Positions 1 through 7,543 of a stretch of 10,110 bases of DNA are shown here, piece after piece. The first letter of the stretch is position 1; the number at the start of each line of letters is the position of its first letter. A model generated the notes under the pieces. It was not told the DNA's origin, ran no database searches, and saw only the letters and a list, made by a program, of their open reading frames with translations. A program made the position numbers and the translations under genes. Origin of the DNA: a virus (lineage: Duplodnaviria; Heunggongvirae; Uroviricota; Caudoviricetes); IMG/VR virus record IMGVR_UViG_2529293240_000015, positions 1 through 10,110 of that record; one strand, written 5' to 3'.

Positions 1-39
1 ATGTTTACGCTGGCGGAAACGGGTTAGCGTTTGCCCCAG
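1..39 (-). pseudogene. dpiA: dpiA (citB) response regulator, distal part of the insertion-disrupted gene (partial, continues beyond window start)
   Basis: Reverse complement of 39..1 translates LGQTLTRFRQRKH, continuing in frame the receiver-domain ORF interrupted at 8305 (...YERLG). Matches my recollection of E. coli DpiA (...ERLGQTLTRFRQRK...). Not verified by search. Confidence 0.75.
35..39. repeat. Left copy of 5-bp target-site duplication CCCAG flanking the Mu-like element
   Basis: CCCAG lies immediately outside the left phage end (TG at 40..41) and is repeated identically at 8305..8309 immediately outside the right end (CA at 8303..8304). A 5-bp duplication is the known Mu transposition signature. 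Confidence 0.85.
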
Positions 40-250
40 TGTATTGATTCACTTGAAGTACGAAAAAACCGGGAGAACATTGGATTATTCGGGATCTGAT
101 GGGATTAGATTTGGTGGGGCTTGCAAGCCTGTAGTACAAATTTTAGGCGTTAACCAATGAAACGCGAAAGATAGTAAAAAATTGCTTTTGTTTCATTGAA
201 AAAACGAAAACAAAAACACTATAAATCATTTCAATCATAGCTTCAAAAAA
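40..250 (+). other. Mu-type left end (attL) with transposase-binding repeats (L1-L3 region)
   Basis: Terminal 5'-TG; repeated TGxTTCAYT...CGAAA(A) motifs, e.g. TTGATTCACTTGAAGTACGAAAAAA near 44..68 and TGTTTCATTGAAAAAACGAAAAC near 199..221; matches recalled Mu left-end sequence almost base for base. Extent is approximate. Confidence 0.7.
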
Positions 251-375
251 CGTTCAAAACCGATAACAACCAGGCTGTCACCAAATGACTCATATCACAA
301 ATCAGCTCATGCCGTTTAGGTATGTTACATGTGTGATTATGTGAGGTTAAGTATGTTTTAGCTGGCTCATGGTTG

Positions 376-885
376 TTATACGGCTTTTTTCGCATCTTGT
401 GGTTCCAACAAAGGAGCTACAGGCTCTTCCTGTTTATGAACACCATACATTGACAAAATCTCTTGGCGAGTTTCTGGAGGTAATTTATGCAGCGCCAAAG
501 CTGTTTGTAGTGTTTGGCGATCAATACCCAGCGTTGCCAATAGGGTGTCAACGGAGATGGAGGGGCGTTCTTGCATTAATCCGGAAAGCCCATATTTAGC
601 CATGTTTAGCTCTATCTCTCGGACTTCATTTTCTCCTAGTTTATTGATTAACAGGGAGAACATTTTCAATGTATCAGCATTCATTTCTTCGATAGCAATT
701 TTTTGCATAGCCGGTATTGCCGGGATATATTCAACCCCAGGCCCGCGACGCCCTTCTTGTGAACGCTTCGGCCATCCTTCTTTCTTTGCTCGTTTATGCA
801 CCCCCTGTATTGTCCCAGGCATTCCATCCAGTTCAGTAATTTGTTTGGGTGTCATCCACTGGTTTATCTCATTTGCGCTTTTCAT
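376..885 (-). CDS. c: Mu-like phage repressor c (immunity repressor), 169 aa
   Basis: Divergent from ner, as in Mu. N-terminal motif LDGMPGTIQGVHKRAKKEGWPKRSQEGRRGPGVEY is paralogous to the N-terminus of the transposase in this same window ([33 protein letters not shown]); the repressor and MuA share this DNA-binding domain in Mu. Confidence 0.8.
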   Translation of the reverse strand: MKSANEINQWMTPKQITELDGMPGTIQGVHKRAKKEGWPKRSQEGRRGPGVEYIPAIPAMQKIAIEEMNADTLKMFSLLINKLGENEVREIELNMAKYGLSGLMQERPSISVDTLLATLGIDRQTLQTALALHKLPPETRQEILSMYGVHKQEEPVAPLLEPQDAKKAV

Positions 886-1047
886 AAACTAAGTTTACCA
901 GATTTATCTATATAAAAATCAATGGATTACAAAATAAACCACATCAACTGATATAAATCGATTGGGTTTATTTGGTTTATATGGCAATGTATAAAACAGA
1001 TAATCAAGACGAATTATTTGTTTTGATAACCCTTTATCATACGCAAT
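886..1047. promoter_or_regulatory. c/ner divergent operator and early promoter region (Mu O1-O3, Pe/Pc equivalent) with an IHF consensus match
   Basis: AT-rich 160-bp intergenic region between divergent c and ner; AATCAATGGATTA at 917..929 fits the IHF consensus WATCAANNNNTTR; repeated GGTTTAT motifs at about 975..995. Individual operators not delimited. Confidence 0.5.
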
Positions 1048-1302
1048 ATGGTTGGTGTGCGAAAGATGAGTAACGATTGGCATCGGGCCGACGTGATTGC
1101 GGCCCTCAAAAAAACAGGAACCCCTCTGGCAAAATTGTCCAGACGTTCAGGTTATTCAACCGGGACGCTTGCAAATGCATTAGTCAGGCCATGGCCTAAA
1201 GGTGAACGCATTATTGCTGACGCCTTAAACATGAAACCTGAGGAAATTTGGCCTAGTAGATATCTAAGGGATCACAATGAGAGAGTGGATATCAGCAATT
1301 GA
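1048..1302 (+). CDS. ner: Ner-like DNA-binding transcriptional regulator (Mu Ner / E. coli Nlp family)
   Basis: DWHRADVIAALKK...TLANAL..PWPKGERIIADAL..KPEEIWPSRY matches the Ner/Nlp family signature. True start may be the second ATG at 1066 (MSNDWHR...). Confidence 0.85.
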   Translation: MVGVRKMSNDWHRADVIAALKKTGTPLAKLSRRSGYSTGTLANALVRPWPKGERIIADALNMKPEEIWPSRYLRDHNERVDISN

Positions 1303-2912
1303 ATGCATGGGTTTATCTGGTTTACCTGGTTCATTAATGGGGGGTTCACAAAAGAGCTCAGAGAGAAGGATGGCTCAAGAGAAGAAGAGAAGGAATTAGA
1401 GGGGTTGCTTACGAATACCATATATCTTCTCTTCCTAACATTGCTCGAGCTGAAGTTTTGCTCCAACAAGGAAAATTTAAAACCAGTCAGGGATGTTTTG
1501 AAATCGCCCGCCCCACGCTGGAAGCTCATGATTATGATCGTGAGGCACTATGGAGCAAATGGGATAAAGCCAGCGATTCCCAGCGCAGCCTGGCTGAAAA
1601 ATGGTTGCCCTCAATTCAGGCCACAGACGAAATGCTGAACCAGGGGATTTCAACGAAAACGGCTTTTGCGACCGTTGCAGGGCATTACCAGGTCAGCGCA
1701 TCCACTTTGCGGGACAAGTATTACCAGGTACAGAAGTTTGCGAAGCCTGACTGGGCGGCTGCACTTGTTGATGGACGTGGAGCATCCCGTCGCAATGTTC
1801 ACAAAAGTGAATTTGACAAGGATGCCTGGCAGTTTCTGATTGCAGATTATCTGCGACCGGAAAAACCCGCCTTCCGCAAATGTTATGAGCGTCTGGAACT
1901 GGCAGCCCGCGAGCATGGCTGGAGTATTCCCTCCCGTGCCACGGCCTTTCGCCGGATTCAGCAACTGGACGAGGCAATGGTTGTTGCCTGTCGTGAAGGT
2001 GAACATGCACTGATGCATCTGATACCGGCACAGCAGCGAACTGTGGAACACCTGGACGCCATGCAGTGGATCAACGGCGACGGTTATCTGCATAACGTCT
2101 TTGTACGCTGGTTTAACGGTGATGTGATCCGTCCGAAAACATGGTTCTGGCAGGATGTGAAAACCCGAAAAATTCTGGGCTGGCGCTGCGATGTGAGCGA
2201 GAACATTGATTCAATTCGCCTCTCGTTCATGGATGTTGTGACTCGCTACAGTATCCCGGAGGATTTTCACATCACCATTGATAACACCCGTGGTGCTGCG
2301 AATAAATGGCTGACGGGAGGCGCGCCCAATCGCTACCGCTTTAAGGTAAAAGAGGACGATCCAAAAGGACTGTTTTTACTGATGGGTGCGAAAATGCACT
2401 GGACAAGCGTTGTTGCCGGTAAAGGCTGGGGCCAGGCAAAACCTGTTGAACGTGCTTTCGGTGTTGGTGGGCTTGAGGAATACGTTGATAAGCATCCGGC
2501 ACTGGCTGGCGCATATACGGGGCCAAATCCGCAGGCAAAACCTGATAACTATGGCGACCGCGCTGTTGATGCAGAGCTGTTTCTGAAAACCCTTGCCGAA
2601 GGTGTGGCGATGTTCAATGCCAGAACAGGCCGTGAAACAGAAATGTGCGGGGGCAAACTCTCGTTTGATGATGTTTTCGAGCGTGAATACGCCAGAACGA
2701 TTGTGCGTAAGCCAACCGAAGAACAAAAACGGATGCTGTTACTGCCTGCCGAGGCAGTGAACGTTTCACGCAAAGGCGAGTTTACGCTTAAAGTTGGCGG
2801 CTCCCTTAAAGGCGCGAAAAACGTTTATTACAACATGGCATTAATGAATGCCGGAGTGAAAAAAGTTGTGGTCAGATTTGATCCACAGCAGTTACACAGC
2901 ACGGTTTATTGA
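1277..2912 (+). pseudogene. A: Mu-like transposase A, pseudogene: +1 frameshift in G6 run at 1339..1344 and C-terminal truncation by IS600 at 2910
   Basis: ATG at 1277 gives [23 protein letters not shown] (cf. Mu MELWVSPKECANLPGLPKTSAGV); after GGGGGG the homologous frame shifts by one base ([10 protein letters not shown]...[27 protein letters not shown]...), continuing through the DDE core ([19 protein letters not shown]) to ...QQLHSTVY, where the TGA stop is supplied by the IS600 terminus. Mu A has about 100 further C-terminal residues (CYTLDGRF...) that are absent. Confidence 0.9.
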
Positions 2913-2973
2913 GGTAGCCTGAGTTTAACGGACACTCCTTCCTGAAATAGAATGGCATCAGAAGGAGCTAATA

Positions 2974-3276
2974 ATGAGCAGAAAAACCCAACGTTACTCT
3001 AAAGAGTTCAAAGCCGAAGCTGTCAGAACGGTTCTTGAAAATCAACTTTCGATCAGTGAAGGCGCTTCCCGATTATCTCTTCCTGAAGGCACTTTAGGAC
3101 AATGGGTTACCGCCGCCAGAAAAGGGCTCGGTACTCCTGGTTCCCGCACGGTGGCTGAACTGGAATCTGAAATTCTGCAACTGCGTAAGGCGTTAAATGA
3201 AGCTCGCCTTGAGCGAGATATATTAAAAAAAGCAACAGCGTATTTTGCACAGGAGTCGCTGAAAAATACGCGTTAA
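2974..3276 (+). CDS. IS600 OrfA (IS3-family transposase N-terminal, HTH/leucine-zipper protein)
   Basis: MSRKTQRYSKEFKAEAVRTVLENQLSISEGASRLSLPEGTLGQWV...; AGGAG Shine-Dalgarno at 2963..2967. Confidence 0.9.
   Translation: MSRKTQRYSKEFKAEAVRTVLENQLSISEGASRLSLPEGTLGQWVTAARKGLGTPGSRTVAELESEILQLRKALNEARLERDILKKATAYFAQESLKNTR
3225..3231 (+). other. IS600 programmed -1 ribosomal frameshift slippery run (A7 followed by G) joining orfA to orfB
   Basis: tta aaa aaa g in the orfA frame; shifting -1 here continues in the orfB frame (orfB is in frame 0, orfA in frame 1), giving the OrfAB fusion typical of IS3-family elements. Confidence 0.7.
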
Positions 3277-3311
3277 TCGAACAATGGCGACAACAATTTC
3301 CCATTGAAGCG

Positions 3312-4130
3312 ATGTGTCAGGTATTTGGTGTATCCAGGAGCGGTTATTACAACTGGGTACAGCATGAACCCTCAGACAGAAAACAAAGTGATGAGCGGCT
3401 AAAACTGGAGATTAAGGTGGCACATATCCGCACTCGCGAAACATATGGAACCCGGCGGCTCCAGACGGAGCTGGCAGAGAATGGCATCATCGTTGGTCGT
3501 GACCGACTGGCACGTCTTCGTAAGGAGCTAAGGCTACGCTGTAAGCAGAAACGCAAGTTCAGAGCGACTACGAACCCGAACCACAATCTGCCAGTTGCGC
3601 CAAATCTGCTGAACCAGACGTTCGCTCCTACAGCACCAAATCAGGTCTGGGTGGCGGACCTGACGTATGTTGCCACACAGGAGGGATGGTTGTACCTCGC
3701 TGGCATCAAAGATGTTTATACGTGCGAAATTGTCGGCTACGCCATGGGAGAGCGCATGACAAAAGAGCTGACAGGTAAAGCCCTGTTTATGGCGCTCAGG
3801 AGCCAGCGCCCACCTGCCGGGCTAATCCACCACTCTGATCGAGGTTCACAGTACTGCGCATACGATTACCGGGTCATACAGGAGCAGTTTGGTCTGAAAA
3901 CATCAATGTCGCGTAAAGGTAACTGTTACGACAACGCTCCGATGGAAAGCTTCTGGGGAACGCTGAAAAATGAGAGCCTGAGCCACTATCGTTTTAATAA
4001 CCGGGATGAAGCCATCTCAGTAATACGGGAATACATTGAGATTTTCTACAATCGTCAGCGTCGTCACTCTCGTCTGGGGAATATCTCCCCGGCAGCCTTC
4101 AGGGAAAAATATCATCAGATGGCTGCTTAA
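3312..4130 (+). CDS. IS600 OrfB (IS3-family DDE transposase catalytic domain; expressed as OrfAB fusion)
   Basis: ...QVWVADLTYV...IHHSDRGSQY...NAPMESFWGTLKNE... is the IS3-family integrase-like DDE core; the reading frame is open upstream of the 3312 ATG back to the slippery site. Confidence 0.9.
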   Translation: MCQVFGVSRSGYYNWVQHEPSDRKQSDERLKLEIKVAHIRTRETYGTRRLQTELAENGIIVGRDRLARLRKELRLRCKQKRKFRATTNPNHNLPVAPNLLNQTFAPTAPNQVWVADLTYVATQEGWLYLAGIKDVYTCEIVGYAMGERMTKELTGKALFMALRSQRPPAGLIHHSDRGSQYCAYDYRVIQEQFGLKTSMSRKGNCYDNAPMESFWGTLKNESLSHYRFNNRDEAISVIREYIEIFYNRQRRHSRLGNISPAAFREKYHQMAA

Positions 4131-4173
4131 AAAAAGAACAAATGGTAGTGTCCGCTATTGCCAGTACACCTCA

Positions 4174-4890
4174 AACAATAAGGTCATTACAGATACAGGT
4201 TGCGGAAATATTTGTCTTGCAGGTGCTGTGGTGGAAGTTACTGGCACTCGCGGCGCAATGACCATACGCGTTACTACGCCAAGTACGTCCAGCGGCGGCG
4301 GAATCACTAACGCTCAATTCACTTATATTAATCATGGTGATGCTTATGCTCCTGGCTGGCGAAGAGACTACAATACGAAAAACCAGCAGCCTGCATTTGC
4401 TTTAGGGCAAACAGGAAGCAGGGTTGCAAATGATAAAGCTGTTGGCTGGAACTGGAATAGCGGTGTTTATGATGCAAATATCAGCGGTGCATCAACATTA
4501 ATCCTCCACTTCAATAAGAATACGGGGAGCTGCCCTGCTGTACAGTTCCGTGTGAATTATAAGAACGGCGGTATTTTTTATCGTTCAGCGCGTGATGGTT
4601 ATGGATTTGAGGCTGGCTGGTCAGAGTTTTACACCACAACACGCAAGCCATCAGCGAGAGATGTTGGCGCATATACGCAGGCAGAATGTAACTCAAGGTT
4701 TATTACAGGTATTCGCCTTGGTGGTCTGTCATCTGTTCGGACATGGAATGGTCCCGGCTGGTCTGACAGGTCAGGTTATGTTGTTACCGGTTCCGTTAAC
4801 TCAAACAGAGATGAACTAATTGATACAACTCAGGCAAGGCCAATTCAGTATTGCATTAATGGGACGTGGTATAACGCGGGGAGTATTTAA
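4174..4890 (+). pseudogene. S: Tail-fibre variable C-terminal region (Mu S variable part equivalent), 5'-truncated at the IS600 boundary
   Basis: Frame is open from inside IS600 (the track ORF at 4036 is a chimera); C-terminus ...RPIQYCINGTWYNAGSI parallels the end of the minus-strand cassette (...[17 protein letters not shown]); immediately followed by a tail-fibre assembly gene. No phage-derived start or constant region is present. Confidence 0.7.
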
Positions 4891-4892
4891 CG

Positions 4893-5426
4893 ATGATGCA
4901 CTTAAAAAACATTTCTGCTGGTAATCCTGAAACAAAAGAGCAATACCAGCTAACGAAACAATTTAACATCAAATGGCTTTATACAGAGGATGGGAAAAAC
5001 TGGTATGAGGAACAAAAGAACTTTCAGCCTGATACGTTGAAAATGGTCTATGACCACAACGGCGTTATTATTTGTATTGAAAAGGATGTTTCAGCAATTA
5101 ATCCGGAAGGCGCAAGCGTCGTTGAGGTTCCTGATATTACAGCAAATCACCGGGCTGATATTTCAGGTAAATGGATGTTCAAAGATGGCATAGTGATAAA
5201 GCGAACTTATACCGGGGAAGAGCAGAGGCAACAAGTGGAAAATGAAAAGCAAAGCCTGTTGCAACTTGTCAGGGATAAAACCCAGCTATGGGACTCACAG
5301 CTACGGCTGGGCATCATTTCCGCCGGGAATAAGCAGAAATTAACCGAGTGGATGCTCTACGCGCAGAAGGTCGAATCCACAGACACCTCCAGTCTGCCAG
5401 TAACGTTTCCCGAACAACCAGAATGA
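4893..5426 (+). CDS. U: Tail-fibre assembly protein (Mu U-like chaperone), 177 aa
   Basis: MMHLKNISAGN...DGKNWYEEQKNFQPDT...[28 protein letters not shown] is the Tfa/U family signature; starts 2 nt after the tail-fibre stop. Confidence 0.8.
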   Translation: MMHLKNISAGNPETKEQYQLTKQFNIKWLYTEDGKNWYEEQKNFQPDTLKMVYDHNGVIICIEKDVSAINPEGASVVEVPDITANHRADISGKWMFKDGIVIKRTYTGEEQRQQVENEKQSLLQLVRDKTQLWDSQLRLGIISAGNKQKLTEWMLYAQKVESTDTSSLPVTFPEQPE

Positions 5427-5431
5427 GAGAA

Positions 5432-5457
5432 GGCCCGCTATCGGGCCTTAATTTTTA
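5432..5457 (+). terminator. Rho-independent terminator hairpin between the convergent U and U' genes
   Basis: GGCCCG-ctat-CGGGCC stem-loop (5432..5447) followed by TTAATTTTTA on the plus strand, directly after the U stop codon. Confidence 0.6.
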
Positions 5458-5982
5458 CTCTGGTTTTTGTGGCCATTCTGGCTTTGCCGTATCCACACGG
5501 CTGACCAGAACACTGTAGCGTTCCCATGACTCCAGTCGTGCGCGTTCCTCATCTGTTGCCATATTCAGCCTGACAGAGCGCTCCAGCGGCTGGATGACTG
5601 ATTCAGCTTCGGAAAGCAATGCGGCTTTTTGTGATTCGGCCTGTTGCTGCTGTTCGTCTGCCGTATAAATCCGCTTAACCACAGCTCCGTCCTTAAACAT
5701 CCACTTCCCGGAATCATCGGCACGACGATTTGCTGTTATATCGGGGACCTCAACGACGCTAAAGCCTTCAGGATTAAGCGTGGAGGCATCTTTAGTGATG
5801 GCGACAATAATATTATTTTCATCGTAAACAATCTTTATTGTATCTGGCTGAAAGTTCTTCACTTCCCCATACCAGTTTTTTCCGTCTTCTGTCCACAACC
5901 AGATTACGTCAAAATTCTTTGTTAATTCGTACTGTTCCAGTGTTTTAGCGTTACCCGCTTTAATGTTCTTTAAGTGCATCAT
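5455..5982 (-). CDS. U': Tail-fibre assembly protein (Mu U'-like chaperone), 175 aa
   Basis: Paralogue of the plus-strand U ([11 protein letters not shown]...[16 protein letters not shown]...[19 protein letters not shown]), encoded convergently, as in the Mu invertible G segment. Confidence 0.8.
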
Positions 5983-5983
5983 A

Positions 5984-6970
5984 TTAAACGCTCGCTACAT
6001 TATACCAAGTGCCATTTATATACTTTTGAATCGGTCTGTAATAAACACCCGCAATATTATCGGCAGAGTTGGAACCTGTATCCTGAACATTAATACCAGA
6101 CAATACATGACCTGAAGGGCACTGAAAATTCCATGTTTGCCAGTTGTTCACTCCATAATATTGCTGTGAACCAAGTCGAACATCTTTCACATATCTGGAA
6201 TCAAAATTGCCATAGTTGCCGGGAATAACTTGCGAACCGCAAAGCCAGTTCCCGTTATTATCCATGTACGCCTGACCATCGGTGCCATTGGCTGTCCTTG
6301 AGTTATTAATCATGTAGATGCCAAATTGCCTATTCCCCAGCCCACCAATTACGAATTTACGGTCGGTATGGTCCTGGCGAAGCAATGCCTGCGCACCATC
6401 GTTGGATACCGCATTACGGCCCATAATAACGTTCTGGTCACGCATATGAATCCACATGCCTGTACTGCTGTTAATTAAAAAACGGTTTGTAAATATATCT
6501 CCTGTAACAACCAGACCATGCCCCATGCTTATCCGGCCAGTTCTGAGATTAAGCGTAAAGGGGCGTAGTGGCCCTATATTACCATTTTCCCCTTCATTCT
6601 CTCGTGTAGGGATGATATGCAGGCATTCTTCAGAACGACGAAAAATGGCACCAAAAGATGAATTAAATATTCTCAGTGCATTGACCGTCGATATTTTTAC
6701 TTCACTGCTGAAAAGGGCTTTAACAAGAACATACAGAGCATCCCATTTAAGATTCATCAGGTCTTTAACCCGGCCGCCAGTGAGGTGGTGTCTCCATTTG
6801 AAATACTCATTGCCGTTGTCGCCTGTTTCAAACCACATGTATGAATCAGTATCGCTGTCGGCATCATTTTTAAATCCAATCTTTGCCCAGTCAGTATTCC
6901 GAATCCAGGCAAGGATTGAGTCGTTTTCAAAAGTAAGTCCACCGGACAACGTATCGCCATTTTTTTGCAC
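5984..6970 (-). CDS. S': Alternative tail-fibre variable cassette (Mu S' variable part equivalent); not a self-standing gene in the intact phage
   Basis: C-terminus ...[19 protein letters not shown]; stop is 1 nt from the U' start; the reading frame stays open upstream through the gix-like site (to at least 7043). In Mu this cassette is only expressed after inversion fuses it to the constant part of S. The track start at 6970 is a GTG. Confidence 0.7.
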
Positions 6971-6995
6971 GGCGTTACCAGCCTTGTTTACCGTT

Positions 6996-7021
6996 TCCTG
7001 TAAACCGAGGGGCCGTTTCTG
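6996..7021. other. gix-like recombination site at the right border of the tail-fibre cassette region (only one half-site recognisable)
   Basis: TTCCTGTAAACCGAGG at 6996..7011 matches the Gin crossover site as I recall it (TTCCTGTAAACC-GA-GGTTTTGGATAA); the following half (GGCCGTTTCTGG) does not match. No partner site was found at the left border near 4174. Confidence 0.45.
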
Positions 7022-7063
7022 GCCTGCATGGCATGATTTCCGCTTTTAAACGGGGAATTCAGC

Positions 7064-7261
7064 GTGCTGATTGGCTATGTAAGGGTATCAACAAATGACC
7101 AGAATACAGACCTGCAACGAAACGCTCTTGTTTGTGCAGGATGTGAACAAATATTTGAAGATAAATTAAGCGGAACAAGGACAGACCGACCGGGATTAAA
7201 ACGTGCTTTAAAGCGCCTTCAAAAAGGAACGCATATAGAAAACGACGATCGAATCAATTAA
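7064..7261 (+). pseudogene. gin: gin DNA invertase remnant: in-frame internal deletion leaving 65 aa (N-terminal 55 aa plus C-terminal THIENDDRIN)
   Basis: MLIGYVRVSTNDQNTDLQRNALVCAGCEQIFEDKLSGTRTDRPGLKRALKRLQKG matches the Gin/Hin serine-recombinase N-terminus including the catalytic Ser (VRVST); it then joins directly to the recalled Gin C-terminal tail (..HIENDDRIN). About 128 codons of catalytic and HTH domains are missing, relative to a roughly 190-aa Gin. Confidence 0.85.
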
Positions 7262-7354
7262 ATCGATCTGTATTACCGATCGATTATGTCCCGATAACCA
7301 CACCCGACTGATGAGATTTTTTAAGATAACGGCGAATTGATGCAAGGAGGTGAA
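7247..7354 (+). promoter_or_regulatory. mom operon regulatory region: three GATC (Dam) sites including an 8-bp inverted repeat, upstream of com
   Basis: GATC at 7247..7250, 7265..7268 and 7278..7281; AATCGATC (7261..7268) and GATCGATT (7278..7285) form an inverted repeat. In Mu this cluster is the Dam-methylation-sensitive OxyR-binding region of Pmom. GGAGG Shine-Dalgarno at 7346..7350. Confidence 0.65.
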
Positions 7355-7543
7355 ATGAAATCAATTCGCTGTAAGAACTGCAACAAACTGTTATTTAAAG
7401 CGGATTCCTTTGATCACATTGAAATCAGGTGTCCGCGTTGCAAACGTCACATCATAATGCTGAATGCCTGCGAGCATCCCACGGAGAAACATTGTGGGAA
7501 AAGAGAAGAAATCACGCATTCTGACGAAACCGTGCGTTATTGA
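7355..7543 (+). CDS. com: Com, zinc-finger translational activator of mom (62 aa)
   Basis: [61 protein letters not shown]; a Cys4 protein essentially identical to my recollection of Mu Com. Start chosen at the ATG preceded by GGAGG rather than the track ORF start at 7337. Confidence 0.85.

Follow-up and report, generated by a model that had tools for sequence, protein, structure and literature searches.

Anatomy of the locus

The window, by which we mean the whole stretch of 10,110 nucleotides that was analysed, matches contig AFOW01000008.1 of the Shigella flexneri draft assembly GCA_000217895.2 exactly over 8912 nt. The strain table of PMC6397287 lists this assembly as S. flexneri J1713, with the sequencing platform absent from that table. 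The naming of the strain is in conflict, since the NCBI name of EGM63186.1, a protein from the same contig, gives it as SFJ17B.

Bases 40-8304 of the window are an 8.3-kb Mu-like prophage remnant, inserted in the dpiA gene of S. flexneri. The antisense of dpiA occupies bases 1-39 (...LGQTLTRFRQRKHM), and a target-site duplication, CCCAG, can be read off the sequence on both sides of the element. Its left copy lies within dpiA at 35-39, and its right copy, at 8305-8309, borders on the 5' part of dpiA, with dpiB beyond it, both on the minus strand. The Mu-type left end (40-210, plus strand) opens with TGTATTGATTC... and aligns by megablast to Mu and D108 from their base 1. It carries the transposase-binding sites L1 (50-66), L2 (154-170) and L3 (194-210), which share the consensus YMYNWRAARYRCGAAAR, and the right end (8233-8304), which closes with ...CGCCGCTTCA, carries R3 (8233-8249), R2 (8256-8272) and R1 (8278-8294). 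A scan of the window with the consensus YMYNWRAARYRCGAAAR returned nine matches against 1.7 expected, and six of the nine are located at the two phage ends. The element therefore shows the features of a Mu-like prophage, namely ends of the form TG...CA, three transposase-binding sites per end and a 5-bp duplication. The complete gene set of such a phage (A, B, lysis, head and tail) is absent from it. The genes left are c, ner, the truncated transposase gene A', part of S, U, U', S', a gin remnant, com and mom, and the phage DNA lost in comparison with SfMu amounts to about 29.7 kb, a stretch that starts within A, takes in B and ends in the middle of S.

At the left, the repressor gene c (376-885, minus strand) is an intact ORF of 169 codons whose product matches Pfam PF02316 (E = 4.5e-12), and the exact protein sequence is listed for 6687 blocks in the public collection. 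The ner gene (1066-1302, plus strand; 78 aa; PF13693, E = 4e-29) shares 26 nt with the start of A, a point in which the remnant differs from Mu and D108. Two smaller differences among the copies of the remnant were observed in this region. A 9-bp indel (TTATATGGC) at 977-985, in the operator region between c and ner, distinguishes the window and L013 from the other S. flexneri copies that were compared base by base, namely L003, L004, L005 and L007, and L013 also carries an IS1 in the stretch that separates c from the left phage end.

In immunity type the early region differs from Mu, D108 and SfMu, and its type is found intact in E. coli prophages. The prophage of UMNF18 (NZ_AGTD01000001; A protein WP_001209536.1), together with L024, L025 and L029, has the same combination of a 169-aa c, ner and an A protein that begins MREWISAIEC... 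In UMNF18 the annotated repressor is equal in length to the c of the remnant, and ner and A are arranged in the same way. SfMu is 94.7% identical to the right part of the window, and its megablast match begins only at window position 1446, so that c, ner and the 5' end of A are without a match to SfMu at that level.

Transposase gene A and its truncation by IS600

The order of the remnant, with A placed after c and ner, is that of Mu and D108, which also have end sequences and binding sites as in the remnant. In the window, A lies on the plus strand in two pieces. The 5' piece, in the original frame (1277-1399), opens at ATG 1277 with 22 authentic codons and is then read off-frame until a TAG at 1397-1399, which gives a 40-aa ORF. 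The rest of A', in the next frame (1338-2912), encodes residues 23-544 of the corrected protein and terminates at a TGA (2910-2912) that belongs to the start of IS600. Residues 1-22 agree with those of the intact A of UMNF18 at 21 of 22 positions, and in the uncorrected window they are off-frame relative to the remainder. The break coincides with a run of six G (1339-1344, hereafter G6; TTAATGGGGGGTTCAC, also ...CCTGGTTCATTAATGGGGGGTTCACAAAAG...), as had been proposed in the first-pass annotation, a model's reading of these bases made earlier. This proposal is borne out by the window sequence, by the 40-aa ORF and by the comparison with UMNF18, since a 520-nt DNA alignment with that prophage (96% column identity) contains one gap, of 1 nt, which falls inside the G run. 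At this point UMNF18 reads ATGGGGATTCAC and the window reads ATGGGGGGTTCAC.

Removal of one G yields a product of 544 aa that ends in ...QQLHSTVY. The N-terminus of this corrected A' is related to the repressor of the remnant itself (24/60 identical residues, E = 3e-16) and displays the spacing GxPGxxxGVHKRAxxEGW, so the repressor-like spacing that the same annotation had predicted for the restored frame is recovered. The annotation had also recommended an alignment with the transposases of Mu and D108. In that alignment the corrected A' runs residue for residue, without gaps, along MuA (NC_000929, Mup03; 91% identity) and D108 A (92% identity), as it does along UMNF18 A (96% protein identity), over its positions 1-544, which correspond to MuA 1-545.

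The domain order of A' is the same as in MuA and D108 A (PF02316, PF09039, PF02914, PF09299). In the one-G-corrected protein the N-terminal Mu DNA-binding domains are present (PF02316 at 9-141, E = 3e-43; PF09039 at 148-255, E = 9e-48), and the DDE core is matched over the full length of PF02914 (E = 9e-136). The catalytic triad is conserved, with D268, D335 and E391 invariant in the alignment with MuA (D269, D336 and E392), D108 A and UMNF18 A. The N-terminal region of about 70 residues, which corresponds to the enhancer/operator-binding domain I-alpha, differs from those of MuA and D108 A and represents a third specificity type, matching the 169-aa repressor encoded by the remnant.

A' thus contains domains I-alpha, I-beta and I-gamma, the DDE core and part of the II-beta barrel. 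This barrel is incomplete, since the match to PF09299 covers no more than positions 1-50 of 61. Of the 662 residues the final 118, equivalent to MuA 546-663, are missing, and with them all of III-alpha and III-beta, including the RRRQK segment. In MuA, III-alpha is needed for transpososome assembly and cleavage, and III-beta contacts MuB and ClpX. The loss of the C-terminal domain had been noticed before, and it proves to be larger than claimed, because it also takes in the end of II-beta and, beyond A, about 29.7 kb of phage DNA. The earlier statement that the element is unable to transpose on its own likewise holds, because the C-terminal domain is lost, and the conclusion is over-determined, gene B being gone as well. 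A' is a MuA-family transposase pseudogene cut by IS600; residues 545-662 of a normal A are replaced by the insertion sequence. UMNF18 A, unlike A', is full-length (662 residues) and is followed by B.

The insertion sequence that adjoins ...QQLHSTVY, in agreement with the first reading of this junction, is a copy of IS600 (IS3 family; 2910-4173, plus strand) with orfA at 2974-3276 and orfB at 3312-4130. It has the expected length (1264 bp, against about 1264 bp for the element), imperfect terminal inverted repeats of the form TG...CA and both ORFs, and along its entire 1264 bp it shows 99.9% identity to copies annotated as 'IS3-like element IS600 family transposase'. It also shares with annotated copies the A-run between the ORFs. 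This run, at 3229-3240, may be a programmed frameshift site; it lies 1.9 kb from the G6 run, and several other assemblies call a fused 385-aa OrfAB across it. This copy of IS600 differs from annotated ones in being without a 3-bp target duplication, since TAT (2907-2909) stands on one side and AAC (4174-4176) on the other. A simple insertion explains such unlike flanks less well than a deletion beside the element or a recombination between two copies of IS600. The borders of the element correspond to SfMu coordinate 2902 in A and to about 32618 in S.

The truncation of A by IS600 is real, old and common to the copies that reach the junction. Among the other Shigella copies that extend so far, 11 of 11 (L003-L013) are truncated at the identical base, with megablast alignments colinear across the A'/IS600 junction, and 544-residue products ending in ...HSTVY beside IS600 are called or readable in L003, L007, L008, L009, L013, L028 and L030. 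Beyond IS600 the copies diverge. The tail-fibre gene S follows in the window, L013 and L018. In most S. flexneri copies (L004-L012, positions of about 1-3922) we observed genes for a portal protein, Mu F, a protease/scaffold and a major capsid protein, on the strand opposite to A'. Because the sequence beyond IS600 differs among lineages, there seems to have been one ancestral insertion of IS600 in A, followed by separate, lineage-specific, IS-associated deletions and inversions.

To the right of IS600, bases 4174-7040 hold the 3' part of the tail-fibre gene S and the invertible segment with U, U' and S'. These labels rest on 94.7% identity to SfMu 32618-37146 and on Pfam matches of the called genes. 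The gin invertase gene (7064-7261, plus strand) is reduced to 65 codons, against about 197 in SfMu, by an internal deletion of about 390 bp that is apparent in the alignment with SfMu gin, and the invertible tail-fibre segment is consequently frozen. The 65-aa product is also called in L018, L019 and L021-L023. The region ends with com (7355-7543) and mom (7464-8189), both intact ORFs on the plus strand with matches to PF10122 and PF25680, respectively. The remnant has therefore kept c, com and mom intact, along with all six transposase-binding sites at the phage ends.

Origin of the sixth G

We surveyed the length of the G run in 12 loci of Shigella and E. coli, taken from complete or draft genomes, in one metagenome contig and in six contigs from viral collections. 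In the 15 other copies of the remnant (listed as L002-L013, L026-L028 and L030) the run has five G, one fewer than at 1339-1344 of the window (plus strand), and the 544-codon frame is open wherever the extent of the sequence suffices. Four intact relatives (L001, L024, L025 and L029) have GGGGA, which is one base shorter than the window, and encode an A of 662 residues. Six G occur in none of the 19 other sequences (0/19) and are confined to the window and to L014/L017, which represent one and the same contig. A pattern scan that allowed zero to three bases after GGGG, run on genome, metagenome and viral collections, added nine further loci, all with one base and none with six G. The protein level agrees with these counts. 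The 484-aa product of the window was found in one contig only, and the 40-aa frameshift peptide is not on record as a called gene. A five-G version bearing E181K, a substitution private to the A' of the window, was sought as well, and none was found in the collection, which leaves genomes of the L013 type as the closest kin of the left half. The frame is accordingly uninterrupted up to the IS600 cut in 15 of 15 other remnant copies and over the full length of A in the four intact relatives, and among all of these it is broken, by one added base at codon 22/23, in GCA_000217895.2 only.

The assembly was then compared with its closest relatives over about 24.6 kb in all, with L013 as the comparator on the left (99.85% identity) and L018 on the right (99.92%). 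It has six private indels, each a change of one base in a run of 4-7 identical bases, and at every one of these sites the 5-12 other assemblies agree with each other. Besides the G run at window position 1339, where the assembly has G6 and all others G5, the sites are in pagP (L014 position 2026; T5 against T6), at window position 206 (A4 against A5), and in L017 at 12966 (A5 against A6), at 13235 at the start of citC (A6 against A7) and at 17882 in citG (T5 against T6). As a result, PagP has 127 aa in the assembly and 186 in the relatives, CitC has 335 against 352, and the 292-aa CitG of the relatives is broken here into pieces of 90 + 164 aa.

The proportion of indels is also out of line. 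In the right half we counted three private indels against one private substitution, and the differences shared by lineages in the same alignment amount to about 2 indels per 18 substitutions (about 1 per 9). An excess of this size has a binomial probability of about 0.004 in the right half and about 0.003 overall, the latter being approximate because L013 is a less close comparator and some of the left 'private' substitutions may be lineage differences. Since the sixth G is unique to this assembly, and since this assembly alone departs from the rest at five other homopolymer runs nearby, G6 is most likely a run-length sequencing error in one draft assembly, which on the sequence comparisons we regard as a strong inference. 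The publicly annotated frameshifts and shortening of pagP, citC and citG deserve the same suspicion, since the assembly is the sole outlier at their runs as it is at G6. As a description of the bases in the window as given, the first-pass annotation is correct throughout; it had further described A as doubly inactivated and had mentioned a sequencing error as a caveat. The truncation stands, being found in every copy that reaches it (11/11), the frameshift lacks support as a biological lesion, being confined to one assembly, and the caveat has become the more probable reading, given the absence of G6 from the 19 other sequences and the five additional outlier runs.

The sixth G might instead be genuine, that is, a slipped-strand gain of one G, private to this strain, in the five-G run of a pseudogene free of selection, possibly in a strain whose homopolymers are unusually unstable, for instance through a defect in mismatch repair, and A' would then carry two lesions. 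We consider this unlikely, though it is the alternative that deserves most weight. The assembly does have private substitutions, among them E181K in A', which would mark it as a separate lineage, where a private indel might be genuine, and further decay of an already non-functional A' is not selected against. The run of five G, which arose from GGGGA by an A-to-G change (I23V), is also slightly more prone to slippage. Frameshifts by run length do occur nearby in other Shigella lineages. At window position 8799, in dpiB, the length of a C run differs between L019-L022 on the one hand and the window and L018 on the other, and dpiB is uncalled in those four assemblies; this has the look of a genuine homopolymer frameshift at the level of lineages, and it served us as the natural baseline.

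Against a genuine sixth G, the base is absent from all 19 other sequences, and three of the five further runs at which this assembly stands alone, all within about 25 kb, affect chromosomal genes that are intact in the closest relatives. Extrapolated to a genome, such a rate would predict about a thousand frameshifts private to this strain. In the best-controlled half, private indels exceed private substitutions by 3:1. A mutator strain is not indicated either: mismatch-repair mutators are expected to show a near-pure transition spectrum, and the private substitutions comprise about six transitions and three transversions. If the sixth G were nevertheless real, it would be a late and inconsequential lesion, and because the gene was already dead, the extra base has no consequence either way.

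A different significance would attach to G6 if A', together with the intact c, acted as a domesticated trans-dominant inhibitor of transposition by incoming Mu-like phages and the remnant were a natural, mobilisable mini-Mu. The idea of an inhibitor arises because A' is open in the other S. flexneri copies examined and keeps its DNA-binding and catalytic domains while the assembly/activation domain is lost, and that of a mini-Mu because the 8.3-kb remnant keeps both ends complete. We regard this combined proposal as speculative and quite improbable. If the inhibitor reading were true, a genuine G6 allele would mean a loss of protection in one strain.

Two further interpretations can be rejected with little hesitation. 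The G run might be a functional switch that sets the level of full-length A' by phase variation or programmed frameshifting, for which the sole support is the position of the lesion, in a homopolymer near the start of the gene. Homopolymer runs of six are short for phase variation. The intact and presumably functional relatives have GGGGA and so lack the run, the remnant copies with five G are in frame, no second allele with six or seven G was present among the 19 sequences, and the truncation of the gene downstream means that no frame would give an active transposase; it is exceedingly improbable that the run is a switch. Equally implausible, and in fact refuted, is a natural start of A at TTG 1458, an option raised by the first reading and adopted in the deposited annotation of this assembly as a 484-aa 'transposase', with the upstream frame lying outside A: a 484-aa product is also called in L005, but L005 has five G and a frame open from the upstream ATG, so that its call is a choice of the gene caller, the four intact relatives encode 662 residues from that ATG, and the upstream 60 residues resemble the cognate repressor and match PF02316 from profile position 2 (residue 9 of the protein).

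History of the remnant and comparison with related elements

Taken as a whole, the explanation that we favour, and consider probable, is that A' was cut by a shared IS600 in a Mu-like remnant and that G6 is a miscall of homopolymer length. Counted from its start, bases 1277-2912 make up 82% of the transposase gene A in a Mu-like prophage. A phage of the UMNF18-like immunity type, as its repressor and the N-terminus of A show, would have transposed into dpiA, making the 5-bp duplication, and IS600 would later have inserted after codon 544 of A. In the lineage of the window, everything from IS600 to the middle of S would subsequently have been lost. The outcome would be an 8.3-kb 'mini-Mu' that keeps both ends, c, ner, com and mom, and that should be immobile unless a related phage provides A and B. 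Judged from its gene content and ends, the remnant may be able to confer immunity, and its mobilisation in trans is conceivable in principle.

Published work has already described cryptic Mu-like remnants in S. flexneri, and neither the lesion nor the element is new in kind. Using PCR and Southern blot, Jakhetia and Verma (2015, PMC4406740) found cryptic SfMu-like remnants to be widespread in S. flexneri serotypes; the passages of that paper that were consulted contain no sequence-level account of the dpiA locus and no mention of IS600. The locus has no bearing on any open question. It is a clean example of how the IS elements of Shigella erode prophages, with a cut by IS600 followed by lineage-specific, IS-adjacent deletions and rearrangements. 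For the quality of annotation, it illustrates that a second inactivating mutation should not be scored from one draft with discordant homopolymer runs, and the same caution applies to the apparent frameshifts of pagP, citC and citG in this assembly. As for the intact relative of the same immunity type, the UMNF18 prophage lies next to yphB, a site unlike that of the remnant in dpiA.
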